A stretch of DNA of 64,000 nt from a bacterium (GCA_963675295.2 CAXXKJ010000002.1:4192001-4256000), one strand, 5' to 3'; positions 6,279-27,467 are shown, counted from the first letter of the stretch. Notes: generated from the letters alone by a model not told the origin. Made by a program: numbers and translations.

Positions 6279-6334
6279 CTTTTACACGTCATGCAAGCTT
6301 GCGTACATTTGGCATTAAGATACAAGAGGCATTC

Positions 6335-7360: not shown

Positions 7361-7445
7361 AGTGTGAGTTGAATTTTGGTATTTGCCGACGCTTGAATAT
7401 CTAAAACGCGGATAGGATCGTTGCTTACAACTTCCTATCGATAGA

Positions 7446-7629: not shown

Positions 7630-7655
7630 GGTCCCTGCCACCAGATTTCTTTTGT

Positions 7656-8510: not shown

Positions 8511-8538
8511 AGATTCTGCCTTTCCTGAGTACTCAGTT

Positions 8539-8970
8539 TTAATTCCGATCCCTGAGTTCAGCGCGAACCTGCATAAGTATTTGACCTAAGTGATTTTTTC
8601 CGCGACCAGTTCGAAGATCGACACCCCAGTACGTATCGCCCCAACGGTTGCCTTCCTGGATGTGTTCGTTCCCAGTGGCAAGCAGTTGCTGAGCCATTAT
8701 TGTGTGCTGCTGAAATTTAGCACGCACGCCTTCGAGCATCACGTTCCGTTTCATGTGATCCCAGTTCTTCTGCAACTTTACCCGCTGACCTTCGCGCTTT
8801 GCCTGTTCAGGTGATGCAAGCTTGCGGATTTTTTCAGCTTCACCCTGATCAGCACACTTGCTTGCCTGAAAGAAGTGTTCGACGGTAGGATATCGCTTCC
8901 CATCCACATCGATGGGGGATTCGAGGAAGTTGTCCAGAAACTCGTAGTCTTCTGAAAATCGCTTGATCAT
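8539..8970 (-). CDS. NADAR (YbiA-like) family protein
   Basis: FLDNF, YPTVEHFFQASK, KFQQH, LLATG, DTYWG, GKNHLGQILMQVR motifs. Confidence 0.92.
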   Translation of the reverse strand: MIKRFSEDYEFLDNFLESPIDVDGKRYPTVEHFFQASKCADQGEAEKIRKLASPEQAKREGQRVKLQKNWDHMKRNVMLEGVRAKFQQHTIMAQQLLATGNEHIQEGNRWGDTYWGVDLRTGRGKNHLGQILMQVRAELRDRN

Positions 8971-9115
8971 ATAGTCTCCAGACTGTGCCTCTTCAATGCC
9001 CTTAAATTCAGATCTGTCAACAGCGGCTATCAACCGCTAGTTTTAACACCAACGTCAGTTAGTTGCCGTGCAGTGTACCTAGGATTTCTACTCACCATAA
9101 CTCGAAACTGAACTC

Positions 9116-9143
9116 AAAAGGGAATCTCGGAAGATTCCCTTTT
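9116..9143. terminator. Bidirectional intrinsic terminator
   Basis: AAAAGGGAATCT-CGGA-AGATTCCCTTTT perfect hairpin. Confidence 0.8.
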
Positions 9144-9238
9144 CTGGCGCGGATGTAATTAATCAGATTCCATTCAGTAAGGTGGCATCATGTCGCGGGA
9201 AGTGATCCATTGCGCCAGGCACCCCCACCGAATTCGTG

Positions 9239-10558
9239 TCACTTCACATAGACGATCTTTTGCATCTGCCTACCACTACCGTTCAATGCGGCTTGAATGA
9301 AGTAAACGCCACTTGCCAGGTTGCTCGGTGACCAGCTAAGTCGATGTTCGCCAGCGGTGAACATATCGCGTGCGAGCGTTTCAACAAGCCGGCCAGTCAC
9401 ATCGTAAACAGCGATTGAAAGCTGACCGGATGCAGGCAAGACAACACTGACACCAACCGTGCTGTTGAACGGATTGGGGTATGCTTGCGACATGGTGAAC
9501 GTTTCCGGCTGAACGGGTTCTGTCAACTCACCAGAATCAGACAAATCGGCTTCAAAGTCCCAACCACGATCATGTACCGCCAATTCGTTGTTCCTGCCAA
9601 CCTTGTTGAACTGGAACGAATCTTCAGCAATCACGGTGTTGGGCAGTGTTCCGAGCATAGTATGGAACTGGTACTCACCACCAGGCGCGAAATTCGGCAC
9701 AAACTGGATACCCTGGAACTGAACCTGGTATTCAGCAGGTAGATTCAGGTTCTGGAACGCAACCAGCGGACCGTAGCTGTTTCCATTTGGCAGAGTAACA
9801 CTCGCCCAGGCAGTCGTAACAAGGGGAGTCGCACCGTTCTGGATCATTCCGACAAAATTCAGCGCGCCACCGCGTGCAGGAATGGTGGTGTTGCCTACTG
9901 GATCAACTGTGATCGTCGGGTAGTAGGTAGTGACCACGAAATTGTCGAAGTGTGCCCCATTTTCGCTCTCATAGTACGGACCTGCACCAACCCACAGATA
10001 CAAGTCATCCAAGGTTGAGAAGTTGTCGAAACCGTAAATCACCCGTTCATTCGGACCGCCAACGTCCCACGTGATCTCCCAATCTCCATAGTTACGTTCC
10101 ATGCGCACCACATGTTCACGGAAACCGAAATCGGGGATCGGAACCTGTTCCTGGTGGTCCAACTCCCAGCGCGTGTAGAGTATATCCAAGTCTTCTTGCT
10201 GCAGGTAGAACATGTTCGACCAGTCGTACGCGCCACCTGCCCACGGCATTCCTTCTGACATACCCATGTACACATTGTTGAACTGTGTCATGGTGTCGCG
10301 AGGATAGACGTCAAATTCGATCGTCCACACTTCCGGCATCGTTCCCAATGGTACACCAAAGATTCCAGTGTCATTCCAATAGCCCCAGACTTCAAGTGCG
10401 TAATCACCTTCATGCATCGTTACTTCGCCGAAATCATTGACTAATACCCACGGTTCAAGCGTGCCATCCTCAAAATCATCCTCAAAAATCACGACATCTG
10501 CAACAGATGTTCCAGCCAGCATGAAAATGGCTACGATCCAGCTAAGTGCTTTCTTCAT
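9239..10558 (-). CDS. Secreted protein (lectin/LamG-like N-domain, conserved pre-CTD module, T9SS-type CTD)
   Basis: MKKALSW signal peptide; IFEDDFEDG; PARGG...LPNG...FAPGGEY module; YPNPFN...KIVYVK. Confidence 0.8.
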   Translation of the reverse strand: MKKALSWIVAIFMLAGTSVADVVIFEDDFEDGTLEPWVLVNDFGEVTMHEGDYALEVWGYWNDTGIFGVPLGTMPEVWTIEFDVYPRDTMTQFNNVYMGMSEGMPWAGGAYDWSNMFYLQQEDLDILYTRWELDHQEQVPIPDFGFREHVVRMERNYGDWEITWDVGGPNERVIYGFDNFSTLDDLYLWVGAGPYYESENGAHFDNFVVTTYYPTITVDPVGNTTIPARGGALNFVGMIQNGATPLVTTAWASVTLPNGNSYGPLVAFQNLNLPAEYQVQFQGIQFVPNFAPGGEYQFHTMLGTLPNTVIAEDSFQFNKVGRNNELAVHDRGWDFEADLSDSGELTEPVQPETFTMSQAYPNPFNSTVGVSVVLPASGQLSIAVYDVTGRLVETLARDMFTAGEHRLSWSPSNLASGVYFIQAALNGSGRQMQKIVYVK

Positions 10559-10789
10559 CTTTCTTCCCCTCGTTCTGTTTCGAGTACCGATCCCGCATCG
10601 GTTGCTGAAAGAAGGAGTGGAAATCAAAAGGGGTGAACTAATCCAAAAATTGGAAATGTTACGTCGGACTTGAGTAGAGGAAAACAAAGATCGAATTTAG
10701 GTCAGTATTTTTAGTGCTGGAAGTAGTTCTGAACCGCAAAAACTGCTGGTAGTTGATCCAATCGAAAAGCACTCATCGAATGGGATCAT

Positions 10790-11485
10790 CTAGTTGCTAT
10801 CCGTTGACTCAGACGTGTTATCCAGCGGTCGATTCTTTACCGCCCAAAGGTAGAGATCCCTGAGTTTTGCCAGGCCTACTTTGTTGCGGATTGCTTCGGT
10901 GCGTTTGCGGATTGCCCACTCAGAGAGGTGAATCATGTCGGCAATTTCTGCGACGCTCTTGCCATCCTGCAGCAGTCGCAACACCTCAAGTTCGCCTGCA
11001 CTTAATCCATATGGAACTGCTGATTCGTCTGAATCGATGTCTGCTTTCGACTTGCTTGAGGTCTCATCGCCAGCTGGTGCAGGCAAATTGCTCGGCCATA
11101 CATCCTTGCCTGAATATGCATCGTGGATTGCCTTGACAATTTCCTGATTCGACGCGTGTTTTGTCAAAAAGGCTCTGGTCATTTCAAATGCTTTACGCGG
11201 GACATCAATATCCTGCACTGCAGAAATCACGATTATCCGGACTGCTGGCTTCAGTTCCTGCATTCGCCTGATCGTACGCCACTCACGCATACCGTAAAGA
11301 TCAAGATCGAATAACACGACGTCGACCTGTTCTTTTGTGAAAACAGCCAGGGCCTCGTCACGTGTCTGACATGCGGCCACCAACCGAAGTTCGTGTTCGC
11401 GACGAACAAGATTTCGCATTCCTTCCAGCGCGAGTGCCTGGTCTTCAACTGTAAGAACATGGATAATCGAGGACGACATGGTCAA
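10790..11485 (-). CDS. NarL/LuxR-family response regulator
   Basis: VEDQ, VVLFD receiver; LSAGELEVLRLLQDGKSVAEIADMIHLS HTH. Confidence 0.92.
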   Translation of the reverse strand: MTMSSSIIHVLTVEDQALALEGMRNLVRREHELRLVAACQTRDEALAVFTKEQVDVVLFDLDLYGMREWRTIRRMQELKPAVRIIVISAVQDIDVPRKAFEMTRAFLTKHASNQEIVKAIHDAYSGKDVWPSNLPAPAGDETSSKSKADIDSDESAVPYGLSAGELEVLRLLQDGKSVAEIADMIHLSEWAIRKRTEAIRNKVGLAKLRDLYLWAVKNRPLDNTSESTDSN

Positions 11486-13692
11486 CTCCCCTCAGATTTC
11501 ACTGTATCAAGTCTACTGGGAATCAACATCCAGACTCCGGTCAGCTCGTCAAATCGACGTTCAACAGGCAACCGCAGCTCAACTGTGGTTCCAGCTGAAT
11601 CGTGTGATCGAACCTCGCACGTTCCACCATGAGCCAACATGCGCGTTTCCATCAGCACCAATCCGAGGGACTCAGATTGATGTTTGTCCAGCTCGCGAAT
11701 CCCGATTCCATTGTCTTCGATTTGAATACGGACAGGAGAAGCAGAGGTATAACTACGTACAATGACGCTAGATGCTTTAGAGTGTCGATGAACATTGATC
11801 AGTGCATCCTGGATGCAAAGAAACAAATCCAGCTTCACATCAGAGCCAAAATCTACTTTGTCCTCTTCAATCTCACAGGAACATGCAAATGAATGAGAGT
11901 ATTGTTCAACGACCGAACGCAGCATATCCGCATATTCGAATTGGACCAGGGAAGGTAAAAGCGAACGACTACTTGTTCTTACTTCGCGTTCTGAATCAAA
12001 TAGCAATTTGATCATACGTAGTGATTTGTGAAACAACTTATCATCAACTTCTTTGGCCAGCTCTTCCATTTCCCTACCACAATAGAGAAGAACAGCACAA
12101 ACATTCGAATGAAGGAAGCTTTGTGTATCTGCTCTGATGCTGCTATTTTCACGTGTACTGGCTTCACTAATCTGTTTCAATTTCTGCTGATATAACTTAT
12201 CCTGTTTTTGTTTTTCTATCCGTAGTTTTGCGTGCTTATACCAGATATAAAGCAACACAACCAACAGTGGAACAATCACACCTACCAGGAGATTGAGCCA
12301 ATGACGGTGAAACCACCAACCATACCAAGGTACATGAACCAATTCATACAAATTGAATCTGCCATCTCGATCAATCAGAATTGCATGTTTTCCGGCGAGT
12401 ATTACTTCGGTAGAACGTTTCGCATGATTGCTTTGTATGCGGCCTTCAATTACACCAAGTGGCTGAAATTGGGTATCTAGCAGCCACGAACGAGTCTCAT
12501 CGACGACCAGGTAAGCTGGCCCATTTTGCTCCCGTGATCCAGCAATTTCAATCCGTGAGTAGTGAACTCCATCTGAAACTGCAAAACCAGGCGTAGCATG
12601 AAAGCGTAAATGCCGGAACATACCCACAAATAGATCAGGATCGACGCCCTGATCTACAACCAGTTCGGGAGTAATCCCTGCATGAAAGACCAATCTGGTT
12701 TGGCCAAGTGTGGTGGTAGAGTCAACTGTCGAACCAGTTTCAGGATCCAACAGCCAGAGTGTTGTGACTTTGCTTTCTTGCAATGAAATCCCAGATCGGA
12801 CGACCAGCAACCTGTCCTGCCATGGAACAACCTCTGCTGATCCGCCCCCACCACCAGTGTTCCTATACCATAGCAGGGTTCCATGGTCGTCATAGCAGAA
12901 GACATAAGAGTACTCGTCCGTAAACAGGGCGTTTCCCATTCCATTGCCTGGGGCACTGCTGACACCGACAAATCGATGTTGACCACTTCGTTCAGTCTCA
13001 TGTATGAATCGAACGTTGACTCGAACACCCGTTTGGATATCGAAGAGTACGTGATGCTTGTCGTCCAACCGCATCATTCTCAGTCGCCAGACCTTCAAAG
13101 AACTTGGGTATACCACGCCCACAAACGTACTTGAATCTGCGCTAGCAATTGGTCGCGACACAGTTACTTCGTTGCTAATCCCCTGTAAAGGCCTGTATGG
13201 AACATTCACATCTTGTAGCAATGATGTTGACTGCCCCTTCAGTAGATCGAACATGTAGCATGTCTGAGAAGTATCCGTCTTTTGTGAAAAACAGATCCAT
13301 CGTGTGTTCGTTTGATCGTCTGCGACAAAACTCATATCATAAAATGGCACCTGACGAGGAAAACTGGTTGCACGTTCCAGATTGAACCGGCCCAGATTTG
13401 GCGATCCGGAAGGGGCTTCAATCTGCAGGTAGCGTTCATTACTTAAACCACGATGCCCCAGGTGAGCAACAACCAGGAAAGGATCAGGTAGTGAGTCCGC
13501 AACAAACGGTTCAATTGCTTGTGTGTCGAGGCTGAATGTGCGAATGTGTCGAAACTGATAGGGGTATGCTTTTGGATTCGGTTCAGAATACTCACAACCA
13601 GTAACGAACAGAACGAGACATCCTGCAAACAAAACTAACGCTGCTGTTCCGGGTGAGTGTGTAGGCGATTTCATCGAGTCAATATACCGCAT
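11482..13692 (-). CDS. Membrane sensor histidine kinase (NarX-like HATPase, large beta-propeller-like periplasmic domain)
   Basis: FLHSNV H-box, ALINVHRHS N-box, DNGIG, LGLVLM; TM helix; 4-bp overlap with the RR. Confidence 0.88.
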   Translation of the reverse strand: MRYIDSMKSPTHSPGTAALVLFAGCLVLFVTGCEYSEPNPKAYPYQFRHIRTFSLDTQAIEPFVADSLPDPFLVVAHLGHRGLSNERYLQIEAPSGSPNLGRFNLERATSFPRQVPFYDMSFVADDQTNTRWICFSQKTDTSQTCYMFDLLKGQSTSLLQDVNVPYRPLQGISNEVTVSRPIASADSSTFVGVVYPSSLKVWRLRMMRLDDKHHVLFDIQTGVRVNVRFIHETERSGQHRFVGVSSAPGNGMGNALFTDEYSYVFCYDDHGTLLWYRNTGGGGGSAEVVPWQDRLLVVRSGISLQESKVTTLWLLDPETGSTVDSTTTLGQTRLVFHAGITPELVVDQGVDPDLFVGMFRHLRFHATPGFAVSDGVHYSRIEIAGSREQNGPAYLVVDETRSWLLDTQFQPLGVIEGRIQSNHAKRSTEVILAGKHAILIDRDGRFNLYELVHVPWYGWWFHRHWLNLLVGVIVPLLVVLLYIWYKHAKLRIEKQKQDKLYQQKLKQISEASTRENSSIRADTQSFLHSNVCAVLLYCGREMEELAKEVDDKLFHKSLRMIKLLFDSEREVRTSSRSLLPSLVQFEYADMLRSVVEQYSHSFACSCEIEEDKVDFGSDVKLDLFLCIQDALINVHRHSKASSVIVRSYTSASPVRIQIEDNGIGIRELDKHQSESLGLVLMETRMLAHGGTCEVRSHDSAGTTVELRLPVERRFDELTGVWMLIPSRLDTVKSEGS

Positions 13693-13812
13693 GGCACGGT
13701 GTTTCTCAAGAGTTCTGGCGTCTGAGGAAGTGAGGCAGATGATGAGCTTCTGCTATGCCATAGGTTTTTGATTGACGAATTAGAAGGTCAATTATCAACC
13801 CATTGCTACGGC

Positions 13813-14100
13813 TTATATCCTATACATCCCTTTGCCCTGTCGATTCTGCCACCACTCTTCAAACGCTTGTTCCACAAGCTTTGCCTGATGAACCGCCGAA
13901 TCAGGCGACAATGGTAAACCAGATGTTGTTGAGTCATCGGGGTTGTCCGTTTCAATTCGGGGTTCTTCGCTGGCTGGTTTGAACTTCGAATGCCGTAAAC
14001 CAAGAGCTCGAGCTAGTCTAGACCGTTCTTTTTTTTGTTGTTTTGTGTCGCCCCAATCAAGGGACGTGCTGTCAGTACTTCGTGATTTGTGTAGGTTCAT
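13813..14100 (-). CDS. Small hypothetical protein immediately downstream of the putative origin
   Basis: AGGTGAGGA RBS; C-terminal half conserved in the paralog at 7446-7595. Confidence 0.65.
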   Translation of the reverse strand: MNLHKSRSTDSTSLDWGDTKQQKKERSRLARALGLRHSKFKPASEEPRIETDNPDDSTTSGLPLSPDSAVHQAKLVEQAFEEWWQNRQGKGMYRI

Positions 14101-14222
14101 ATGGATTCCTCACCTGTTTCGTGTTTTTTTGTTTTGATGCGCTGTTATACCGTCCTATCCCGTCAGGGTGCTGTTAGTGCGGGACACGTCTGGGCATGTC
14201 CTTAAGCACGCAGTGCGCCGCA

Positions 14223-14560
14223 GCGAGACAACACAAAAAAACGAGTAGGATGACCAAAACGTGACAGGAATGACCACTTTTCCAGGGTGCTTTGGTCATA
14301 CTTAACTTGTGTTATAATTAGTAAATACACGGCGAATGACCGAAATGACCGGAATTTTTCAGAACCTTTTATAGGGTACGTATTCTATATTGTTAGGTTT
14401 ATCTAACTAGTCGATATACCAGTTTCTAAAAAAAGTGGTCATTTCAGTCATCACGCTCGTAATTAGCTTAATAGACAGGACTTAAGTATGACTAAACACA
14501 TCAAAAAAAGCTGTCATTTTCGGTCATTCTGGTCATCGTGTTTTTTTGTTTTTGTTTCGC
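14223..14560. repeat. Dyad-symmetric iteron array, putative replication origin
   Basis: 12 RTGAC(C/A/T) hexamers mirrored about ~14393.5 around an AT-rich core, abutting the primase-helicase stop. Confidence 0.8.
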
Positions 14561-16628
14561 CGTAGAAGTGTTTCTTCCGCAGGATTTCGAAGCCGTACTT
14601 CTGTTTAGCACTGCGCGTTTCTTGATACGCTACCACGTGACTGTCTTGCAAACGACGGAAGTAATCCTGATGACGTTCAGGACGTAAACGCATTGACTTA
14701 AGCATCTCCCGGAATTCCATTTTCATGATATGGCTACCACCACCATGGGTTGCACCTTCGCCATCGACATAACCCAATACCAAGGCTTCAGCAACCAGAT
14801 CCGTTTCAGCTTCGATGTTTGTTTGTGCTGAATCGTAAAGGTCTTTTTCCAGATCCGTGATTGGGCATGGAATACCGTAGCGCGCTGTCGATGTCTGTCT
14901 TTGGGCTTCCCATTTCTTATGCCGTTTTTTCAGTTCAGTGCGCATGTAGTGACCAAATCGTTCACGAATTTCATCCTTGATGTGCGGATTCAGCTTCTTG
15001 ATCGCCGGCACCTTGTAGATGAAGAAATTGTTGTGATCTGGACTGGTTGGTTTTTCATCAGCAACCAGGAATACCGGCCTTGGTTCGTTGGTCGTCAGGA
15101 TGATGTTGGTGTTGTTACGTACACGGTACTGCGGCATGTATTTTTCGTTAACGGTCAGGAATTCGCTGCCGGTCACCCCTTTGATCTGCACGTACTGGCT
15201 TTTTTTGTTGATGTAGTTTTCTTCCACCATTAATAGTTTGTTCGTATAGAACGGGGTAAAATTTTGCTTGTCGCCATCCCAGTCAGAAGCCAGGTCAGGA
15301 AAAATGCTAGCAACGATTTCAGAAAAGGTTGTTTTACCGGTACCACGTTCACCTGTTAGCACTAAAACTGGTAGCTTTTGGTAGTTTGTGTAGCAGTACA
15401 AGGCAAGCCAGTTCTTGATGAAATCGCTATGCTGGTCAAAAAGACTATCCAACCATCGATCTACAAAAGCGTTATCTTTCTTGTCCACTTCTAGATCAGA
15501 CGGAATTTGTATCTGTAGACGACCAGTGTCGAAGTTCAGATCGTAGTCCACCTGGTTGAATGCTGCGCTGGCACGTCGTTCGACGGTAAATTCAGCGCTA
15601 GGTATGTTTCGTCTGCGGGACAGGAAGGTCTTAACATAGTCGCGGTTTCCTTTGCTGATGTAGTCATCGCGGACTTTCACCACATGGGCGTTGCTGTCCG
15701 TCACCTGCACGCGCATCAGTTTGTCTTCCAACATGAACATGCCGGGCTCGACAGGATCTTCGTAGAAGTAGTGTTGATCACCGACAGATTGGCAGTGGGA
15801 ACAGTTCATCTCGACAAAGCCCTTCTTCGTCAGTTGTACGAAAGCGGATGGGCTTTCCGAATTCAAATCATCACAAAACGGGCAGTAGCACGGCTGCTTG
15901 TGGTCCTTGCAGGTTTCCAGGTAAGGGCGTAAGGTTTCCAGTTTGAAACTGGTTCGCTTGTTGGGCAAGACAACATCCATGTCATGTCCGATGTATCGAT
16001 ACTTACCTGCCGGTTGTGCGTTTCCATTGGACGCCTGAACAGCTTTTTCCCTGGCTACTTTTTCCACTTCATCCAGCGGCACCTGGAACCAGATACCTTC
16101 CGTATTCACCTTTAGAATGAAACGATCCGGATTCGGGTTCACATTGGGATATAGCTTCATGTGGCGAGCAAATACACCAGAATCAAACTGCGGGAAGCGT
16201 TTCTTCGCCCAGCCGTAGACTTTGTCGGCCTCATCTGGATCCGTGAAGTACAGACCATTTTGCGGATCAAATGGCAGGATCACCCGGAAACGGGGCTGAA
16301 CCCCACGATGATCAGGCTTGTCTTCCAGATGGTTTGTTGATGTGTACAGGATGTAGTTGTGGTCCTTGAACTGTGCTTCGGCAGCTTCAATGGAAATCAA
16401 TCCATCGTCCGCATCAAGTGCTAGCCCTACCATTCCCTGGTAGCTTTCCTTACCACAATTCTGATCTGGATCCCACACGTTGGTTGCGTGGGCGTAGCTG
16501 CTGAATAGTGTTTCTAAGGCGGGTCGATCTAGCAGGTTTACTGATTCAAGCTTGAATCTTGTTACATTGTTGCCATCAGATTTTGTTTGTAATTTCTTTT
16601 CCTTATTAATAGAAAGTCTAATTTCCAT
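14514..16628 (-). CDS. Primase-helicase (AEP-type primase, Zn finger, SF3/DUF5906-like helicase)
   Basis: LDADD, YTSTNH, RFRVILP AEP motifs; CPFC...CSHC; GERGTGKT Walker A, LLMVEE Walker B, TTN motif C. Confidence 0.88.
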   Translation of the reverse strand: MEIRLSINKEKKLQTKSDGNNVTRFKLESVNLLDRPALETLFSSYAHATNVWDPDQNCGKESYQGMVGLALDADDGLISIEAAEAQFKDHNYILYTSTNHLEDKPDHRGVQPRFRVILPFDPQNGLYFTDPDEADKVYGWAKKRFPQFDSGVFARHMKLYPNVNPNPDRFILKVNTEGIWFQVPLDEVEKVAREKAVQASNGNAQPAGKYRYIGHDMDVVLPNKRTSFKLETLRPYLETCKDHKQPCYCPFCDDLNSESPSAFVQLTKKGFVEMNCSHCQSVGDQHYFYEDPVEPGMFMLEDKLMRVQVTDSNAHVVKVRDDYISKGNRDYVKTFLSRRRNIPSAEFTVERRASAAFNQVDYDLNFDTGRLQIQIPSDLEVDKKDNAFVDRWLDSLFDQHSDFIKNWLALYCYTNYQKLPVLVLTGERGTGKTTFSEIVASIFPDLASDWDGDKQNFTPFYTNKLLMVEENYINKKSQYVQIKGVTGSEFLTVNEKYMPQYRVRNNTNIILTTNEPRPVFLVADEKPTSPDHNNFFIYKVPAIKKLNPHIKDEIRERFGHYMRTELKKRHKKWEAQRQTSTARYGIPCPITDLEKDLYDSAQTNIEAETDLVAEALVLGYVDGEGATHGGGSHIMKMEFREMLKSMRLRPERHQDYFRRLQDSHVVAYQETRSAKQKYGFEILRKKHFYGETKTKKHDDQNDRK

Positions 16629-16643
16629 ATTTTTTCCTTTGGT

Positions 16644-16820
16644 TTAACCTTTGATATCCCATAGATCATAATATTCATCTTCATATCTTTCGTTTTCTTC
16701 CTGATAGTCTTGCATACATGCTGCATACCAGTCTTCTTCGTTGTCATACATATTTCCTTCAAGCCATTCTGGCTTTTTCTTCTTAACTACTTTTTCATCA
16801 TTCTGCTTTTTCCATTTCAT
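16644..16820 (-). CDS. 58-aa basic/acidic micro-protein (not in ORF track)
   Basis: AAGGA RBS; MKWKKQNDEKVVKKKKPEWLEGNMYDNEEDWYAACMQDYQEENERYEDEYYDLWDIKG; fills the gap between HTH gene and primase. Confidence 0.55.
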   Translation of the reverse strand: MKWKKQNDEKVVKKKKPEWLEGNMYDNEEDWYAACMQDYQEENERYEDEYYDLWDIKG

Positions 16821-17004
16821 AGAAAATCCTTGGTTTGTTATCGTTCAAATAGTAGATACGCTTGATGTGATCAACTTGTCGTCGACTGATACCGTATCTG
16901 TTCTGGATGTAGCGCCGTGATAAATCCATATCCAGGGCACGGCATACATTGCTACAAAGTCTTGTGTCTTCCAGTACTTCCGCTGTCGTGGTATGTAGTC
17001 CCAT
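16798..17004 (-). CDS. Small HTH-like DNA-binding protein
   Basis: LSRRYIQNRYGISRRQVDHIK HTH-like pattern; first gene after a consensus promoter. Confidence 0.6.
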   Translation of the reverse strand: MGLHTTTAEVLEDTRLCSNVCRALDMDLSRRYIQNRYGISRRQVDHIKRIYYLNDNKPRIFYEMEKAE

Positions 17005-17132
17005 AAGTTTTGTCCTTGATTTGTTTCACTTACACATCAGTTTCGATTCAAATTGTCCCGACAAAAACCGCCGTAGCGGTATCTGCCGTAGACTTTCAAT
17101 TCTGGAAAAGATATGTAATATCTGACAATTAT

Positions 17133-17161
17133 ATTATAACATTTTTCGGCATATTTGTCAA
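17133..17161 (-). promoter_or_regulatory. Consensus sigma70 promoter for the replication operon
   Basis: TTGACA (17161-17156), 17-bp spacer, TATAAT (17138-17133) on minus strand. Confidence 0.8.
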
Positions 17162-17500
17162 TAGCCGGTCAGAAATATTTTCTGGGTCTCCTCGGCCATT
17201 CAATCTTTCATTTGTATCCTATACCCCTATTGAAGAGTGCAGGATGCCACTGCCACAACCGTTGTCAAGTTTGGATTTCAGCGAAGACGCAGGGCATAAA
17301 AACCGCGGATTGCACCGTTTGAATTTCAGCAGAAACTCTGAAAAAACTGGATGAGACTTCCAAGACAAGTCCATAAAAAAATTACATTTACTATAATTAT
17401 TATGTTTTATATGAATTTCGAATCCGTTTCTGAAACTACCCTCTATCTAGGGGCGAAGAGTCTCCCTGCCAGCCTCCCAGAGTCGACTGACAGATTACAC

Positions 17501-17549
17501 TTGCGTAGGGGACACTTATGGCGATAGTATTGAGTGTCTTATGTCCCCT
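17501..17549 (+). promoter_or_regulatory. Putative promoter/operator of the XRE gene
   Basis: TTGCGT-18-TAGTAT overlapped by inverted repeats GACACTTA/TGAGTGTC and AGGGGACA/TGTCCCCT. Confidence 0.5.
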
Positions 17550-17565
17550 CAATATCAGGAGTCAC

Positions 17566-18369
17566 ATGACCATGTTCGACAGACCTGAACGAGACCGCTC
17601 GCTTACAGCCAAGTTCTTGAGCACCCTTCGTGATAAATTGGCCTATACCCAGGAAGAGATGGCAGAGCTTTTCGGTGTTTCCAAAAAAACGTATGCAAGA
17701 TGGGAGCGTGGCAACTATGCACCCAAACCTTCGATCTTGTATCCATCCCTTGCAGCACTTCTGCTGACTGGTTCAGCGTCAACTTCGATAAAGAACGTAA
17801 TAAGAGATTTTATTGGAAAAGAATCCTTACCATTTGACATCAGAGCTAGATTGAGGGCTGGCGATTCGAAATCAGGTCCTAATTTGCTTGATAAAAGCAA
17901 AAAACAGTCCATCATTATCATGAAGAAAGGATCTACGCCCCCAGAAAAATATGAAATGAACAGTATTGGAATGTGGGGCTTTGGCCCAATAGATTATGAT
18001 TATATCACGTTTGAACTATTTCAGAATACTTCAAAAGGAGATATACTGTTATTGAAATTTATCATACCATCACAAGGATTACGACATAACAATAACACAC
18101 AGTCACAAGGTCATTCAAAAGCAGTACAGGCTATTTTAAGTCGAGATGCGATTGTAGCCTCACAAACTATTAATTCAATAGTGTATGATAACAATGATAT
18201 CGACAAAAAAGTATATTTTTATTCTTTTCAATTGGAAACAAAGCTCTTGCCGAGCCATATACTATACTATAAAGTAGAGATAGTTAAATTCATAGAATCC
18301 GAAAAGGAAGAAGAACCTTTTGACAAAATTGTAATTTGGAGCGCTGAAGGAAACATTGAAATACAGTAG
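17566..18369 (+). CDS. XRE-family HTH regulator with unknown C-terminal domain
   Basis: LRDKLAYTQEEMAELFGVSKKTYARWERG; AGGAG RBS before ATG 17566. Confidence 0.85.
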   Translation: MTMFDRPERDRSLTAKFLSTLRDKLAYTQEEMAELFGVSKKTYARWERGNYAPKPSILYPSLAALLLTGSASTSIKNVIRDFIGKESLPFDIRARLRAGDSKSGPNLLDKSKKQSIIIMKKGSTPPEKYEMNSIGMWGFGPIDYDYITFELFQNTSKGDILLLKFIIPSQGLRHNNNTQSQGHSKAVQAILSRDAIVASQTINSIVYDNNDIDKKVYFYSFQLETKLLPSHILYYKVEIVKFIESEKEEEPFDKIVIWSAEGNIEIQ

Positions 18370-18452
18370 ATAAAAGACCCACACCATTTCGCCCATGGTG
18401 TGGGTCACAAGCTAGAACGGAGCTTACGCTCCGAACACAGAAAGGAAATATC

Positions 18453-19034
18453 ATGAAAGAAAGTAAGAAACGCAACTTTGGAGGATCAGATCTCCTTGGT
18501 AGGCAGAGCGAATTGCCAAACCCTAACCACAGCCTGGTGACTGTGATACCGGCCGAGATAGAATCGCTCCTTGCAGAGCAGGGATTTGTGACTCTATCAC
18601 AGCTATACGATCGACTTCCGCGCAACCGTGAAAACGGACGGAGACTCATTGGGTTCAACACGCTGTGTGAATATGCCCGGATTGGTTTGATGAAAACACG
18701 GGTGCTAAACCGCAAGAACATGCGCGTGTTGGACCGGGACATGGTTGAGTGGTTTTTCAGGGTACTACCAACCGGACAGCGGGAGTTTCAACTGATCCAC
18801 GAGAGCTTTCGGGATAACCACTGGTATATAGGTGAGTCGGATGAGTTCAACAAGCCGGCGGGTAGATCCCGGGCTGAAAACCTAAGACTGCACAGAGAAA
18901 GGGAAAAACTCGCGACCAAGTATTGTAACCTCGTTAACGATATCCTGCCTGACTTGGAAGAAAATCGGCTCAGCGAAGACGATGTCCTGGAAAGCCTTAA
19001 GCCACTTGAATCCGAAGTTCGCCAGCTGGTATAA
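18453..19034 (+). CDS. Hypothetical protein with MerR-like HTH (possible recombination directionality factor)
   Basis: FNTLCEYARIGLMK...RVLDRDMVEWF resembles the MerR winged HTH; directly upstream of the integrase. Confidence 0.55.
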   Translation: MKESKKRNFGGSDLLGRQSELPNPNHSLVTVIPAEIESLLAEQGFVTLSQLYDRLPRNRENGRRLIGFNTLCEYARIGLMKTRVLNRKNMRVLDRDMVEWFFRVLPTGQREFQLIHESFRDNHWYIGESDEFNKPAGRSRAENLRLHREREKLATKYCNLVNDILPDLEENRLSEDDVLESLKPLESEVRQLV

Positions 19035-19063
19035 GAACATGTAAGCGAACCGAGGAGACGATT

Positions 19064-20119
19064 ATGGCTTGGCTAGAGCGGAAGGAAACGAAATCCGGAC
19101 GCAGAACTTGGTACGTCCGATTCTGGAAACCGGACGGAAGCAAGGGCTCAAAAGCCCTGGGTGTAGGATTGACGAAGCGCGAAGCCCAGCAATTAATGCT
19201 GGATTTTGAACGGAAACAGGCACTTGTTGCGGCAGGTCTGGTTACTCCAGACACCATGGACTGCTCATTGAACGAATTTGTGAAAATGCACCATACGTTT
19301 TCGAAAGCCAACAAGGCAGAGAGCACGGTACTTCGCGACGACAATACCCTTCGAAATCTGATGACCTTCGCGGGTAGTAAGATTCAGGTAAAGGAGATAA
19401 ATCGGTGGATAATCGACGATTACGTCGCACACAGGCTGGAGAGAGTCAAGCCTGGAACGGTGAATCTTGAGATTCGACATCTGAAAGCTGCATTCAACCA
19501 GGCCGTTCGGTGGGATTTGATCGGGGACAATCCGTTTAAAGGTGTTAAGCAGATCAGAATTCCACAATCCGACGTTCCGAAATTCCTTGATCAAGGACAG
19601 ATCGAGCAACTCTTAGCTGTAATGGTGTCAGATCCGTTACTGCCCTTAGTAAGATTCTATCTATTTACGGGCGCCAGACTTCGCGAAGGTGTTTATCTAC
19701 GGGGAGACGATCTTGATTTTGACCGCAAGATTATTCTGTTCCGTGGTCGTTGGACGAAAAGCAAACGCAATAGAATCCTACCTTTCGGCCAACTCCCCGA
19801 GTTAGAATCATTGCTGCTTGGGCAAAGTCCCAAACAGGATTTCCCAGTATTCCACTCGGTAAAGGGATCTGACACCATGTGGAACATTCATTGGGTGGGG
19901 CACAGGATCAGCGAAATGTTTAACAGGATCGGCATCCCTTGGGCAACTACGCATACCCTCAGGCACACCTTCGCTTCGCATTTGGTAATGCAGGGCGTAG
20001 AGCTTTTCACTGTTTCTAGGCTGCTGGGGCACTCTTCCGTCACGATTACCGAGCGGCATTACGCACACCTAGCACCTGGTCATGCAGAACGGGCAATCGC
20101 GAAGCTCCCTTATCGCTAG
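19064..20119 (+). CDS. int: Tyrosine recombinase/integrase
   Basis: TGARLRE (R), TKSK (K), HTLRH, LGHSS, HYAH; SAM-like core; ends 75 bp from att. Confidence 0.95.
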   Translation: MAWLERKETKSGRRTWYVRFWKPDGSKGSKALGVGLTKREAQQLMLDFERKQALVAAGLVTPDTMDCSLNEFVKMHHTFSKANKAESTVLRDDNTLRNLMTFAGSKIQVKEINRWIIDDYVAHRLERVKPGTVNLEIRHLKAAFNQAVRWDLIGDNPFKGVKQIRIPQSDVPKFLDQGQIEQLLAVMVSDPLLPLVRFYLFTGARLREGVYLRGDDLDFDRKIILFRGRWTKSKRNRILPFGQLPELESLLLGQSPKQDFPVFHSVKGSDTMWNIHWVGHRISEMFNRIGIPWATTHTLRHTFASHLVMQGVELFTVSRLLGHSSVTITERHYAHLAPGHAERAIAKLPYR

Positions 20120-20193
20120 CGCGGCAATGCCCACCTATTGCCCACCAGCACAGAAAGGGGGTTAACGCTATTAAGCGTAAACCCCTGTTTTTA

Positions 20194-20236
20194 CTAGTGC
20201 GCCATCAGGGACTTGAACCCCGAACCTGCGGATTAA
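20194..20236. repeat. att site: 43-bp copy of the tRNA-Lys 3' half
   Basis: CTAGTGCGCCATCAGGGACTTGAACCCCGAACCTGCGGATTAA identical to 31134-31176. Confidence 0.95.
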
Positions 20237-20465
20237 TAGACTTATGCTCTGCAAAAGCCGATTTATCTTTATATGTACTTATATATTAGATAAATAATAT
20301 AGGCGTATCAGGCAGTTTCTTCTTGACAAGATGAGATCCATAATTCTGCAGGAGCTCTCTTCTCCTCCCCCGATTGCACCCTGAGTTTCGCTCGCCTTAC
20401 TCGACCACACATTTTGTCACAGGTGGCATTAACAATCTCTGTGATTTCGAGGACAAGCACAAAAC

Positions 20466-21011
20466 ATGGCCTTAGATCTGGTACTGCGATTACGTGATGG
20501 TGATGAAGAAGCGTTCCGCGAACTATTTCTGTCGTATGTACGGGTGCTCATCAGCTTTGTCTACGGAATCGTTCACGACCTACCCATTGCAGAAAACATC
20601 GTCCAGGATGTCTTTGTCGAACTCTGGAACCGGCGGCGATCGCTGAATCCCAATTCGAGCATCCGCCCCTACCTCTACACAATCGCGAAGAATAAAGCTT
20701 TCAAGCATCTGAGGCACAAAGATGTTGAACGCCGACATGCAGATGAAACAAGTCAAAGTGACCTGTTCGAACCCTCCCCAGAGCATTCTGTCATCTCCGA
20801 AGAAAGAATCGCTGCGATTCACGCTGCCATCGATGCTCTACCTGAGAAATGCAAGCTTGTCTTCAAGATGAACCGTTTCCAGGATCTAAGCTATGCTGAG
20901 ATCGCTGAGGTGCTGGATATTTCAAAGAAGACTGTAGAAGCCCACATGAGCCGTGCCCTGCGAGAACTGCGCGACAAGCTCGGGCATTTGTTTGTCCTGC
21001 TATTCCTCTAA
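20466..21011 (+). CDS. ECF sigma-70 factor (Bacteroidota-expansion type)
   Basis: AENIVQDVFVELW region 2; LPEKCKLVF...SYAEIAEVLDISKKTVEAHM region 4. Confidence 0.95.
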   Translation: MALDLVLRLRDGDEEAFRELFLSYVRVLISFVYGIVHDLPIAENIVQDVFVELWNRRRSLNPNSSIRPYLYTIAKNKAFKHLRHKDVERRHADETSQSDLFEPSPEHSVISEERIAAIHAAIDALPEKCKLVFKMNRFQDLSYAEIAEVLDISKKTVEAHMSRALRELRDKLGHLFVLLFL

Positions 21012-21145
21012 TCGTCCAGAAGCGTCAAACCACCCACCAGTAATCCTGTCTGCCATGTCGAGTCTCCCTGCTCTCCTGGAGACTAAGGGTATTCTCTGCC
21101 TAAGGGGTACCACCAATAGAACCCGGGATTTGCAGGAGTTGAGTC

Positions 21146-22159
21146 ATGAACCATGAGATCGATCTTGAATTGCTGGCGAAGTACTTGTCCGGCGAATGTT
21201 CGGACCAGGAAGTGAATGATGTTGAAACGTGGATGGCCCTTGATGAGGAAAACCGACAGTCAGTCGAACAGTTGCGTCAAATCTGGGAGACACCTCCGCC
21301 GGATATCGCCGCATCAAGTGATATCGAACGGATGTGGGAAGAGGTCGCCGACCAGACTAGCCGCAAATCTGACAGGACTGCCAGCCGATCCACCAAGGTC
21401 ATTCCACTGTTCAGCAGTAAGGTGCTTCGCTATGCGGCCGCCATTGCGATACTGGTCATTCTGAGCGTGACGATGATTCAAACGATCCCAACACTGCTGA
21501 CTACTGGTGAAACTCAACTGGCTGAGTTGACCATTCCGAACGCAAACCAGGATAGCATCACTTTAGCTGATGGTACCGTGGTCACCTTGGACGCGGGTTC
21601 AACCCTTCGCTATCCGAAATCGTTCGTTGGCCGAACGCGCGAGGTTGAGTTGAACGGCGAAGCCTATTTCGATGTTGCACCTGACCAAGACAAACCGTTC
21701 ACAATAAAAACTGCGCTGGGGCGTGTTCAGGTTCTGGGTACAGAGTTTTCCGTGCGTGGTTGGGACAAGAACGAACCACTGCGGGTTGTTGTTGCTGAGG
21801 GCAAGGTTTCACTCGCTTCAAAAACTGACCTGTCTCAACCGGTGATTCTCACGGCTGGACTGGAAAGCGCCGTATGGAGTGGAATGATACCTACTGAACC
21901 TCGAGAAGCTGACCTCAGCACCGAATTCAGTTGGATGCAGGGTGTCCGGATTTACAGCGGGCATACGGTCCAAACGGTCATCTTCGACATGCAGCGCTGG
22001 TATGACCTCAATATCGATTTTGTTGACAGTGATCTGCTTTCAGAGCGAGTCTCACTGCGAATCGAACGCGACAGTCAAACGGAAGCGCTTGATTTGATGG
22101 CTGTCCTGACAGGTACCAGTTGGATTCAAACACAAGAAGGTGTGCAATTCACCAGGTAG
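21146..22159 (+). CDS. FecR-family anti-sigma factor
   Basis: LADGTVVTLDAGS, REVELNGEAYFDV, VQVLGTEF; one TM helix. Confidence 0.93.
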   Translation: MNHEIDLELLAKYLSGECSDQEVNDVETWMALDEENRQSVEQLRQIWETPPPDIAASSDIERMWEEVADQTSRKSDRTASRSTKVIPLFSSKVLRYAAAIAILVILSVTMIQTIPTLLTTGETQLAELTIPNANQDSITLADGTVVTLDAGSTLRYPKSFVGRTREVELNGEAYFDVAPDQDKPFTIKTALGRVQVLGTEFSVRGWDKNEPLRVVVAEGKVSLASKTDLSQPVILTAGLESAVWSGMIPTEPREADLSTEFSWMQGVRIYSGHTVQTVIFDMQRWYDLNIDFVDSDLLSERVSLRIERDSQTEALDLMAVLTGTSWIQTQEGVQFTR

Positions 22160-22194
22160 TAGATCGCTACCTGTGAATCCAGGGGAGTTGTGTC

Positions 22195-24909
22195 ATGAAA
22201 CAGCTCGATCGACAAGTGCCATTGTTCATCTTGATCCTGTTGTTAACAGCCGGGATGGCTTTCCCACAGCAGGTACTCACAGGTGCTGACTTTATCCGAG
22301 TTGAGCCAGATGATGTTGTTATTCCGGAATCGCTGCTGAAGACGGTTGACCTGAATCTCGAGCGGGTAACGTTCGGCCAGGCACTAAGTGAGATCGCAGA
22401 ACTAGGTGGTCTGGCTTTCAATTTCAATCATGACAGAATCCCAGTTGAAGAACGGATCATTTTAAAGGTTCAGCAGACGCGGATAATCGACGCTTTGATC
22501 AAGCTAATGAGTAAGACGAATACGCATTTGGTCATTACCTCCGCTAAAGATTTCGCGATCGTCCCGGATGTTCTGGAAGAGCTGGAAACGCAGCCGATTC
22601 GCGGCACACTGGAAGATGCTGAAACAGGGGAACCCGTTCCGGCTGGGACGATCCAGGTTCTGGGTCTCGGCTTGGCGGCCGCTACAGACATCGAAGGCAG
22701 ATATGAGTTTCCAGCGCTGGCGGAGGGTGTGTATGCCCTTTCGATTCGACATTTGGGTTATGAACCGCTGGTTGTGGATGTGTACCACGGAAACGGCCAT
22801 TTCGAGTCATCCTACACAATCAAACTGCAACCTACTGTCTTGAACCTGAGCGATGTTACCATAACGCCCGGTAGTTTCTCATTCATGGATGTTTCGCCAG
22901 CGAGCCCGCAGACTTTGACACGTGAGGATATCGAAACAGTTCCACAATTCGGCGAAGACATTTATCGCGCTGTGAAACGTTTACCCGGTCTTTCCTCTGG
23001 CGACTACGCAGCGCATTTCTCTGTACGCGGCGGTCGACCCGATGAAACACTGGTCATTTTCGATGGTCTGGAATTGCGTGAACCGTTTCATTTGAAAGAA
23101 TACCAGGATGGTGCGTTGAGCATCATCGACATCGAAGCAATTGACAATGTCAATTTGATGACGGGTGGTTTTCCGACCGAGTACGGAAATCGTATGAGTG
23201 GTGTATTTGACATCACCAGTCGCGATCCAAGGGAAGGTGAGAACAAGTACACGCTTGGTCTGAGCCTGATGAATGCTCGTGCAACGACAGAAGGCACATT
23301 CGCGAATGGGAAAGGTGCCTGGTTCACATCGGCGCGACGCGGGTATCTGGATGCTGTGCTGGGATTATTGAACGCGGACGATATTCCCAAGCCCGCGTAC
23401 TACGACATCTTCAGCAAGGTGCGCTATGACCTGAACGAAAACCATCGAATTAGTGTTAACCTGCTTCATTCTCGGGATCGGTTCACGTTCGATACCATAG
23501 CCACAACTGGCTACCTGGATACGATTGACACAAAAGAATACGCGGACAACACATATGGTAATTCCTACCTCTGGACGCGTCTTCAGTCGAAACTGCATGA
23601 TCAGGTGAGAGTGACAACCCTGCTTTCTGCCGGGTTGGTCACACAATCTCAATTTGGTTATGAACGATATACCAGGAATGATGAAGACATCTATTCCTTG
23701 GACGATAACCGCGATTACACTGTATACCAGGCGAAGCAGGACTGGCAGCTGGATGTAACAGAGTGGTTGATGTTCAAGACGGGCATCGACTTGAAACAGG
23801 AAGATGTGGACTACAAACTTGTCAGCACGGTTGGACAGAATCCCGACGATCCTTCTCCCGACTCCACTCAGCACTTTCCAGTTGTTACTGAAAACAACTA
23901 TGTCAGAGACAGCCGCTATATAGGTACCTATCTCGCGGCGAAAGTCAGACTATTTCCTGGTTTGTTTGCCGAAGCAGGCGCTCGATACGACCAGGCTGAC
24001 CATTCAAACGATGAAGATTTCAGCCCCCGCGCACATCTGATGTATTCCCCATTCCGAAACGGAACACTGCGATTCGGTTGGGGACAATACCGCCAGATTC
24101 ACAGCATTGAGCAGGTTGCTGAGCTGAATGGCGCGACAGAGTATTACCCATCCGAGCTTTCCGAACAATGGACCGTTGGTTATCAGCATAACTTTGATGA
24201 CGGTTCCAGGCTTCGGATCGAAGGATACGTGAAGGAAGTTCAGAATCCGCGTCCCCTGTTCCGGAACTGGAACGAGGGCATCAACTTCTTCAACGAAGTT
24301 GACGAGGATCGCATCTTCCTGGTCCCCGACAAGATGACCAGTCGGGGTGTTGAGCTCTACTTCACACGTAGTTTCGGCAGAACGTGGTCGTTTCAAGGTA
24401 GCTACGCTTTGGCTTTCCTGGAAGAAACCATAAGCACGGTTGACCTGGTAAATGAGCGTGGTACCCTCGAATTCGATCGCACACACGACCATCCTCGCGA
24501 TCAACGGCACGCCTTGTACCTCGATCTCGCCTGGCGTCCCAATCACCTGTGGACAGTCAGCGGCGCACTTGCCTATCACTCCGGGTGGCCGATCACCCTG
24601 GCCACGATGTATGAAGTTACGGATGAAGATGGTGAAATCGACTACACCGTCCGTCCGAACAAACTGTACGCGAACCGTCTGCCCGATTACTACCGTTTCG
24701 ATGTTCGAGTGACCCGCAGATACGCCATGACACATGGTGATCTGCGTGTCTTTCTCGAAGTCGCCAACCTGACCAATCACGAGAACATCTACAGCTATGA
24801 CTTCTACCGCAGCCCGGGTGTAAACGGCGGCAAGGTTTTCATCACTGAACCGGAGACATGGTTCACCATTCTCCCATCCTTTGGAGTGAGCTGGACCGGC
24901 AACCTGTAA
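22195..24909 (+). CDS. TonB-dependent receptor with N-terminal signalling (STN-like) and carboxypeptidase-regulatory-like domains
   Basis: LPGLSSGDYAAHFSVRGG plug, TGGFPTEYGNRMSGVFD, beta-barrel, aromatic C-terminus. Confidence 0.88.
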   Translation: MKQLDRQVPLFILILLLTAGMAFPQQVLTGADFIRVEPDDVVIPESLLKTVDLNLERVTFGQALSEIAELGGLAFNFNHDRIPVEERIILKVQQTRIIDALIKLMSKTNTHLVITSAKDFAIVPDVLEELETQPIRGTLEDAETGEPVPAGTIQVLGLGLAAATDIEGRYEFPALAEGVYALSIRHLGYEPLVVDVYHGNGHFESSYTIKLQPTVLNLSDVTITPGSFSFMDVSPASPQTLTREDIETVPQFGEDIYRAVKRLPGLSSGDYAAHFSVRGGRPDETLVIFDGLELREPFHLKEYQDGALSIIDIEAIDNVNLMTGGFPTEYGNRMSGVFDITSRDPREGENKYTLGLSLMNARATTEGTFANGKGAWFTSARRGYLDAVLGLLNADDIPKPAYYDIFSKVRYDLNENHRISVNLLHSRDRFTFDTIATTGYLDTIDTKEYADNTYGNSYLWTRLQSKLHDQVRVTTLLSAGLVTQSQFGYERYTRNDEDIYSLDDNRDYTVYQAKQDWQLDVTEWLMFKTGIDLKQEDVDYKLVSTVGQNPDDPSPDSTQHFPVVTENNYVRDSRYIGTYLAAKVRLFPGLFAEAGARYDQADHSNDEDFSPRAHLMYSPFRNGTLRFGWGQYRQIHSIEQVAELNGATEYYPSELSEQWTVGYQHNFDDGSRLRIEGYVKEVQNPRPLFRNWNEGINFFNEVDEDRIFLVPDKMTSRGVELYFTRSFGRTWSFQGSYALAFLEETISTVDLVNERGTLEFDRTHDHPRDQRHALYLDLAWRPNHLWTVSGALAYHSGWPITLATMYEVTDEDGEIDYTVRPNKLYANRLPDYYRFDVRVTRRYAMTHGDLRVFLEVANLTNHENIYSYDFYRSPGVNGGKVFITEPETWFTILPSFGVSWTGNL

Positions 24910-25012
24910 CAAAACTCTAAGTATATATAATTCAATAGGTTCGCGTCGATTTTGTCAGCGATACAAGGCCGAAGACTTGCCTGTTCGGAGCGAATCGAAA
25001 GGGGAGATTCAC

Positions 25013-27427: not shown

Positions 27428-27467
27428 GACCCATTCTCACGACTGGTCGAATTGAGGAGATCCTGAG

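Follow-up and report, generated by a model that had tools for sequence, protein, structure and literature searches.

A probable tRNA-targeting, self-replicating cargo island, in tandem with a second island, at a tRNA-Lys gene of a marine FCB-type bacterium

The 64,000-nucleotide (nt) stretch of DNA analysed here, referred to as the window (GCA_963675295.2, CAXXKJ010000002.1:4192001-4256000), comes from a marine bacterium of the Fibrobacteres-Chlorobi-Bacteroidetes (FCB) type and carries, between 14 and 20 kb, genes for a tyrosine integrase, an XRE-family protein and a divergently oriented primase/helicase. In a first-pass annotation of the sequence these genes had been taken for a compact 6.4-kb phage satellite, possibly of a new family. 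On the best reading they are probably the integrase-proximal end of a much longer element, a 26.2-kb tRNA-targeting, self-replicating cargo island (island II), and the balance of evidence likewise favours an island family whose parts are a tyrosine integrase, a primase/superfamily 3 (SF3) helicase with an iteron origin, a distal recombination-type trio of genes and variable cargo. The satellite interpretation as a whole is partly supported. The second conserved module at the far end of the element, and a second island arranged in tandem with it, lie beyond the 6.4 kb first described.

The attachment (att) site proposed by the first-pass annotation proved to be real. Positions 20194-20236 are identical at 43 of 43 positions to 31134-31176, which comprise the last 40 nt of the tRNA-Lys(CTT) gene plus 3 nt, and a level of two matches was reached in 0 of 100 shuffles. 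The left att site, which was to be sought in the full contig, was found there by a whole-genome search as an exact 40-nt copy (of 20197-20236) at C2:4185979-4186018, 5,982 nt to the left of the window, and within the window itself there was no further core when up to 3 mismatches were allowed. At this outer core the GC content steps from 0.62 to 0.45 (0.446), and the DNA past it is native flank, being 88-91% identical in a congeneric genome. The 26.2-kb bounds rest on this third exact copy of the tRNA end and the fall in GC that coincides with it, and place island II (26,178 nt) between C2:4186019 (L046:10019) and window position 20196, so that the span first described is one end of an element that includes the cargo and reaches about 6 kb past the left edge of the window to its left att. 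The order at the locus is tRNA-Lys, island I (10,900 nt), core, island II, core, chromosome; the GC content is 0.40-0.56 in island II, 0.59-0.63 in the left flank and about 0.56-0.63 in the right. A stand-alone 6.4-kb unit was ruled out, as att has no copy near 13.7-13.8 kb and the conserved trio of the far end is located another 19.7 kb away. Next to the middle core, the arm 20150-20193 is partly identical to the hairpin that follows the tRNA gene (31090-31133), with the changes preserving both stems, and this element-borne arm can be read as a replacement tRNA terminator.

The same tRNA-Lys site is occupied in congeners. In congener G001 a different island, 16.5 kb long and with a 40-nt copy of the core at its border, occupies it; that island shares neither DNA nor protein with islands I and II beyond trivial matches. 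In congener G002 the site falls on more than one contig, and a copy of the core lies some 11 kb from the flank there. Because the congeners hold different content at the same site, the site is, on sequence comparison, a hot spot with recent turnover and independent acquisitions. The G001 island (L060, G001:C59:22500-41500) includes a 1886-amino-acid (aa) open reading frame (ORF).

Within the integrase-proximal module the gene order given by the first-pass annotation (integrase, 193-aa ORF, XRE gene and, divergently, a helix-turn-helix (HTH)-like gene, micro-ORF, primase/helicase, origin and small ORF) is confirmed (Table 1). The primase matches PF19263 (DUF5906) with E 1e-12 and 48.9 bits against a cut-off of 27.6, as well as phrog_1829 and phrog_1156, 'DNA primase', and its match to TIGR01613, the P4-family primase C-terminal model (E 2e-6, 27 bits), lies under the cut-off of 108.7. 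When a profile of seven homologues was compared with the PDB, the matches were 6k9c/6k9e, 'Primase' (E 5e-7), and adeno-associated virus (AAV) Rep40 (E 0.007), both of them SF3 helicases; the former is presumably the helicase part of the phage NrS-1 primase-polymerase. A GxxxxGKT motif, a DxD motif, a histidine and a CxC...CxxC cluster are invariant among the seven homologues. The N-terminal 200 residues would form an archaeo-eukaryotic-type primase domain, and Prim-Pol, D5_N or VirE_N Pfam domains are present in some of the database relatives. The protein is taken to be the replication initiator. Its family is small, with 39 proteins at E 1e-5 or better in a search of 5.8e9 clusters, nearly all of them from an unnamed 'bacterium' or a metagenome. 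No match was found among 50,697 phage records or among 72,556 plasmid records, and the alignment gave a single weak match in IMG/VR.

The origin that had been predicted to follow the primase gene corresponds to a cluster of iterons, seen in all seven of the loci compared (see below), and is here regarded as putative. Eight of the window's 51 ATGACC hexamers fall within 14250-14536, where about 0.2 would be expected by proportion, and they point toward an AT-rich centre, for the most part on one side and in all three cases on the other. The more general motif RTGACM occurs in 6-13 copies within 730-770 nt downstream of the primase stop codon in 7/7 loci, against control means of 0.9-1.9, and none of the 26-310 control windows per locus equalled the observed count; the tested window overlaps the last 26-50 nt of the primase gene, and the motif was derived from the tested regions themselves, which makes the control somewhat generous. 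The dominant iteron varies among elements (ATGACC, ATGACA or GGTGACA), as expected if every initiator has its own iterons. Marine metagenome contigs carry relatives of the origin-primase-orf68 block (14287-17100) at 85-95% identity and no relatives of the XRE gene, the 193-aa gene or the integrase gene, a pattern that fits the shuffling of modules.

The integrase has an intact frame, and the residues taken as its catalytic set (R205, K232, H297, R300, H323 and Y333) are invariant in an alignment of seven integrases. The neighbouring XRE protein, 283 aa as listed and present in a 265-aa form in the protein database, also matches repressor-type PHROGs and is a candidate master repressor, whose C-terminal domain the first-pass annotation had suggested as a possible inducer sensor; a word-indexed search of 5.8e9 proteins returned no homologues, the Atlas gave no match, and in a single-sequence AlphaFold2 model only the HTH is confident, with pLDDT below 50 beyond residue 83. 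The 193-aa product had been called a MerR-like HTH protein. No Pfam match was found at E 0.05 or better, and what remains of the claim is a weak hint from the fold: in an AlphaFold2 model built on a four-sequence alignment (mean pLDDT 77.9), MerR-family chains rank top in Foldseek with a best E of 0.18. A VIA search with the same model saw the helical part alone and returned generic helical bundles (Z at most 7.5). The protein has three remote homologues in a full HMMER search of 1.84e9 representatives, the word-indexed search having returned only itself, and is a candidate excision or regulatory factor.

The divergent operon begins with orf68, whose homologues lie directly upstream of the primase gene in three related loci (L011, L044 and L033), with 47-51% identity over 47-59 BLAST-aligned residues and 40-42% over the whole alignment. 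The three members scanned (3/3) give sub-threshold matches to HTH_28 (E 0.015-0.16), and the orf68 product is probably an HTH protein. A promoter pattern facing this operon, 17161-17133, agrees at 12/12 consensus positions and has a TG before the -10 hexamer, on pattern matching alone. The micro-ORF noted by the first-pass annotation is present but not conserved: in the same three loci it is missing, the gap between small ORF and primase being 16-18 nt in two while the ORFs overlap in the third, and the metagenome relatives skip 86-102 nt at this place, so it is doubtful as a real gene. The 95-aa ORF on the other side of the origin has a 77-aa homologue in the matching place after the primase gene in L044 (35% identity, E 5e-10). 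The small ORFs of 95, 58, 68, 58 and 193 aa matched no family at E 0.01 or better.

At the far end of island II lie genes for a DUF932 protein (E 7e-17), a PD-(D/E)XK nuclease (E 3e-17) with matches to PHROGs of phage exonucleases, and a 245-aa protein that corresponds to phrog_23155, of unknown function. This trio is 55-73% identical to the three genes that directly follow the primase gene in a related element at a tmRNA gene (L033), and the two conserved end modules of island II are separated by 19.7 kb of cargo. DUF932 homologues at 25% identity occur in 11 Flavobacterium phage records, and their neighbourhood in Flavobacterium phage 6H consists mostly of hypothetical proteins; the 253-aa protein of the trio had no match in the phage records. 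A 199-aa distal ORF was considered as a Rad52-like protein and dropped, as no similarity was found.

Seven loci with close primase homologues (47-100% identity) were compared, namely the window and L011, L012, L014, L033, L034 and L044. The linkage of integrase and primase, on which the satellite proposal had staked itself, holds in 6/7 of them, where the tyrosine integrase gene adjoins a tRNA or tmRNA gene and the primase is 0.6-2.5 kb away. The integration targets are tRNA-Ser(TGA) twice, tRNA-Gln(CTG) twice, tmRNA and the tRNA-Lys copy, and the relatives' integrases are 22-33% identical to that of island II. In L012 an IS256/Mutator-type transposase abuts the primase gene and there is no integrase in the 21 kb covered. 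L034, at tRNA-Gln, is bordered by two exact direct repeats of 38 nt at a distance of 12.4 kb, one of which overlaps the tRNA 3′ end, and on this sequence evidence is a complete element; its primase gene is followed by PDDEXK, DUF932, a Rad52/Erf-like annealing protein, a cargo protein with a type IX secretion system (T9SS) tail and, just before attR, an HTH_17 protein. HTH_17 proteins are present in L011 and L044 as well. L011 (covering C2:1452000-1471999) holds a paralogue in the same genome (C2:1460615-about 1500000) with a 59% identical primase; it starts directly after tRNA-Ser(TGA) with the order integrase/HTH_17/orf65/primase and heads a low-GC region of at least 38 kb, up to the end of the profiled stretch. 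A genome-wide BLAST search (E 0.1) found no copy of the tRNA-Ser end downstream of it, and three short matches elsewhere.

The distribution of the primase is patchy, with a match in 13/61 related genomes (own genome counted), which include 3/15 of the own family and 8/12 of another family of the phylum. Distant primases (35-40% identity, 855-883 aa), at L035, L037-L039, L041 and L042, also come from another family of the phylum, and their islands carry a tyrosine or a large serine recombinase, together with Thoeris (a ThsA-like SIR2-STALD protein and the ThsB TIR protein), a Vsr/C5-methylase/HATPase set, recurring ThiF-family genes and an ImuB/DnaE2-like pair; a small DUF5659 protein precedes the distant primase in 3/6 loci scanned. 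No virion or conjugation family was found in these islands among the 76 of 104 ORFs scanned within 8 kb of the primases. A literature search on phage satellites in Bacteroidetes/Bacteroidota and on DUF5906-integrase-tRNA islands, with subscription journals outside its scope, found no description of the family. From the sequences compared, it appears to be a small, lineage-restricted element family, which is searchable by the primase, the iterons and the distal trio.

All ORFs of at least 90 aa in island II were scanned against Pfam, and most of the unknowns also against PHROGs. As the first-pass annotation had stated, genes for packaging or conjugation did not turn up: there was no match to a capsid, portal, terminase, tail, relaxase, coupling protein or type IV secretion system (T4SS) family, so the structural or conjugation genes that would have spoken against a satellite are not among the genes detected. 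Capsid, terminase, portal, relaxase and T4SS were likewise not found in the paralogue and five related loci, and the whole genome (92.8% complete) contains no PF03432 relaxase and no HK97 capsid family. The sole TerL and portal pair of the genome is 4.2 Mb away, in DNA of backbone GC. There the TerL gene (phrog_2, E 1e-36) stands beside the portal gene (phrog_3753, E 8e-28) at C2:8334-11393 (L064:6334-9393), with no other phage match among 12 neighbouring ORFs; the two may form a cryptic packaging pair or be what is left of a prophage.

The genes suggest how such an island could work. The XRE protein would keep the divergent orf68-primase operon silent; once repression is lifted, the integrase would recombine two att cores, possibly aided by the 193-aa protein, and free a circle, which the primase-helicase, binding the ATGACC iterons, would replicate. 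Since there is no difference among the three cores, this integrase could act on island I as well, or on the entire 37-kb array. As the island has no transfer machinery of its own it would have to hitch-hike between cells, with phage capsids as the leading candidate vehicle, wholly conjectural as this is.

Table 1. Coordinates of the features discussed (window positions unless a locus is named)
Feature	Position	Strand	Basis
Third att copy and distal conserved trio	L046:9979-14067		Pfam, PHROGs, repeat search
Island II cargo inside the window	1..13812		Pfam
IS3-family insertion sequence (HTH_Tnp_1 ORF and rve transposase ORF)	3439..4862		Pfam
95-aa ORF	13813..14100	-	no family match
Putative replication origin, opposed ATGACC-type iterons around an AT-rich centre	14101..14513		repeat clustering
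Primase/SF3-helicase fusion, 704 aa, DUF5906/P4-type	14514..16628	-	Pfam, PHROGs, PDB profile
Acidic micro-ORF, 58 aa	16644..16820	-	no family at E 0.01 or better
Conserved small protein, 68 aa (orf68), first gene of the primase operon, divergent	16798..17004	-	homologues; sub-threshold HTH_28
Sigma-70-type promoter pattern facing the orf68-primase operon	17133..17161	-	TTGACA-17-TATAAT, pattern match
58-aa ORF upstream of the XRE gene	17351..17527	+	ORF list; no family match
XRE-family HTH protein	17518..18369	+	HTH_3 E 6e-9, residues 36-74
193-aa protein, small N-terminal domain and long helical bundle	18453..19034	+	AlphaFold2
Tyrosine integrase	19064..20119	+	PF00589 E 2e-19; phrog_1 E 1e-59
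Hairpin arm after the att core, element-borne	20150..20193	-	aligns with the 31090-31133 hairpin
Middle att core, tRNA-Lys 3′-end copy, island II/I junction	20194..20236	-	exact repeat
Island I, integrase-less, 10.9 kb	20237..31136		between two 43-nt cores; Pfam
Intact tRNA-Lys(CTT), integration target	31137..31210	-	ARAGORN

Among the cargo proteins of island II, three have T9SS tails, two of these being FG-GAP proteins. Besides the insertion sequence, the remaining cargo consists of an FGase-like gene, genes for an ankyrin and a NADAR protein, two genes for unknowns, and those for a histidine kinase and a LuxR-type response regulator. No known defence system was recognised in the island; PADLOC gave weak candidates alone, the adjacent ankyrin and NADAR genes (7656-9033), the lowest-GC part of the cargo, being reported as 'candidate' PDC-M72A and PDC-M42C. 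Island I, which lies between island II and the tRNA-Lys gene through tandem accretion, encodes an ECF sigma factor, FecR, two TonB-dependent receptors, a 250-aa unknown, a two-component system and a PepSY-like protein. A contig assembled from sequencing run X1 spans 20207-31163 and terminates in the repeats, and the hairpin arm on the tRNA side of island I resembles the arm beside the island II integrase. By this resemblance island I may descend from a related element and have decayed, or may be a cis-mobilisable passenger. With its matching cores and similar arm, and lacking an integrase, it could be moved in trans or jointly with island II, as are cis-mobilisable elements accreted to integrative and conjugative elements (ICEs). 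Elsewhere in the window the GC content dips locally to 0.49 at 40001-41000, against a background of 0.55-0.63, and a tRNA-Arg(CCG) gene lies at 53518-53592.

The plan of island II was compared with those of known elements. Phage-inducible chromosomal islands (PICIs) and Staphylococcus aureus pathogenicity islands (SaPIs) characteristically carry one or more genes for packaging or interference (terS, ppi, cpm, rpp), and the P4-like set consists of the psu, delta, sid, epsilon and alpha genes. With the former, island II shares an integrase, a pri-rep gene with an adjacent origin and a repressor (that role of the XRE protein being inferred), in the order integrase, repressor, divergent pri-rep, origin, with iterons on both sides of an AT-rich centre directly behind the gene for the replicase. 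It differs in that no packaging or interference gene was found by Pfam or PHROG in the island and six related loci, with no equivalents of terS, ppi, cpm, rpp, sid, psu or delta, in being about twice the usual size, and in its other primase-helicase family. The P4-like gene set is absent as well, the sole link being the sub-cut-off TIGR01613 match. Nor does the island have the capsid, portal, terminase and tail genes of a prophage or, among the Pfam matches, the T4SS, coupling protein and relaxase of an ICE, and the relaxase of a mobilizable transposon or integrative mobilizable element was found neither in the island ORFs nor, as PF03432, in the whole genome.

The closest plan, on the best reading of these comparisons, is that of the tycheposons, with two kinds of satellite, the phage-inducible chromosomal minimalist islands (PICMIs) and the virion-encapsidated integrative mobile elements (VEIMEs), as minimal analogues. 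Tycheposons (Hackl et al., bioRxiv 10.1101/2020.12.28.424599) integrate in tandem at one tRNA gene and push older elements inward. They share with island II a tyrosine recombinase, a primase/helicase module, a tRNA target, partial tRNA repeats, ecological cargo and the lack of transfer machinery of their own, and both of their defining features, a site-specific recombinase with a complete tRNA on one side and a partial one on the other, and autonomous replication genes with a cargo module, are found in island II. The tycheposons described there are in Prochlorococcus, whereas island II is in an FCB-type marine bacterium and is likened to them by plan and not by integrase clade; its primase family is the small, lineage-restricted one of 39 proteins, and it has the PDDEXK/DUF932 trio, while the term 'DUF932' has 0 occurrences in 10.1101/2020.12.28.424599. 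PICMIs (10.1101/2023.07.18.549517), from Vibrionaceae, integrate at fis, encode AlpA, average 6.7 kbp and were shown by experiment to depend on a helper; their definition accepts an integrase of PF00589, PF00239 or PF07508 and a primase of DUF5906 (PF19263) or DUF3987. Island II has both, by its PF00589 and PF19263 matches, and resembles them further in lacking terS, sid, ppi and capsid genes and in having a cargo hot spot after the primase. It has no AlpA match at E 0.01, is located at the 3′ end of tRNA-Lys(CTT) and not at fis, and measures 26.2 kb against that 6.7-kb average. VEIMEs (PMC9618062) are marine too, with integrases, primase/helicases, regulators and no major capsid gene, and some are found in genomes of Flavobacteria and other bacterioplankton; they are defined by their recovery as concatemers from virus particles, whereas island II is described from chromosomal sequence. 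The claim of a 'new satellite family' was overstated, the plan matching that of the tycheposons, PICMIs and VEIMEs.

The strongest competitor of the tRNA-targeting cargo island is a helper-dependent phage satellite, in which a helper protein would inactivate the XRE protein, followed by excision, replication and packaging into capsids, whole or as concatemers. This is judged unlikely. The plan of integrase, repressor, primase and origin without packaging genes fits it, and PICMIs and VEIMEs are genuine satellites without any packaging genes (PMC9618062; 10.1101/2023.07.18.549517). It would agree, too, with the exonuclease and its phage PHROGs, with the DUF932 homologues of the Flavobacterium phages, with the TerL and portal pair elsewhere in the host genome, and with the distant primase relatives in islands that have Thoeris and restriction-modification genes, which are frequent in satellites. 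SatelliteFinder families, however, are smaller than 26.2 kb, and island II contains no recognised defence system. No helper, pac/cos site or interference gene was identified, and the primase is without a counterpart in the phage records and has a single weak match in IMG/VR. The size, with housekeeping-like cargo, exceeds the roughly 8 to 18 kbp given for most known satellites in PMC9618062 as well as the PICMI average.

Less probable still is an immobile remnant in decay, left by an old integration that has become fixed and is losing genes. The IS3 insertion, the DUF932 frameshift (see below), the flat read depth and the neighbouring island I, already without an integrase, are what it would predict; the integrase and primase frames are nevertheless full-length with all conserved motifs, the three att cores agree at 100% of positions across 40 nt, and the different content in congener G001 at the same site speaks for recent turnover. 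A mobilizable integrative element of the Bacteroidales NBU or MTn type, moved by a conjugative element in trans through an unrecognised origin of transfer (oriT), has a partial model in the Bacteroidales mobilizable transposons, in which a relaxase occurs together with an integrase and a primase-family protein, and of which NBU1 targets a tRNA 3′ end (PMC4755523). Island II has the tyrosine integrase, the primase-family protein and the tRNA 3′-end target, but no relaxase was found in it or, as PF03432, in the genome, nor does the primase match any plasmid record, so this explanation is given very little weight. Least credible is a prophage made defective by the loss of its virion genes: it would account for the phage-like primase-helicase and exonuclease and for the Erf/Rad52-like protein in L034, yet that complete 12.4-kb relative and five other related loci are also without structural genes, and an identical loss in every copy is unlikely.

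Several observations weigh against the preferred reading, that of a self-replicating cargo island. The DUF932 gene (L046:11677-12404; C2:4187677-4188404) has one frameshift relative to the 251-aa homologue in L033, which may reflect either decay (a pseudogene) or an assembly error, and the IS3 insertion within the cargo is a further sign of decay. The 19.7-kb stretch between the modules could stem from later unrelated events. The XRE and 193-aa proteins are orphans whose roles are guessed, and AlpA (PF05930/PF12728) was not found at E 0.01 or better in the island ORFs scanned, the sole HTH_17 trace being one of E 0.076 in a 124-aa distal ORF (L046:10536-10910). Finally, the assembled contigs of run X1 have a depth of 41-50 over island and flank, except in bins to which contigs of relatives contribute, and they break at repeats, with no joint linking att cores; direct signs of excision, circles or replication are absent from these data, which by their nature cannot reveal circles.

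It would be a bolder and rather doubtful step to see here an undescribed satellite family of the marine FCB lineage, which travels in helper capsids without a packaging gene of its own and mobilises integrase-less neighbours through the shared core. If true, the shared att core would be the means by which such a family assembles genomic islands at tRNA genes in this lineage, and the markers of the family would be the private primase/SF3-helicase, the co-varying RTGACM iterons and the trio of exonuclease, DUF932 and unknown protein. From the sequences, island II is better regarded as a lineage-specific form of a known class, that of tRNA-targeting, self-replicating cargo islands. The tRNA-Lys hot spot of a little-studied marine FCB-type bacterium has gathered 37 kb of accessory genes (for secreted proteins, regulators and iron-uptake receptors), and the route would be the tandem integration of self-replicating islands. 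Isolate-type sequencing runs apparently exist, and mobility, if true, would extend the tycheposon/PICMI type of element beyond cyanobacteria and vibrios.

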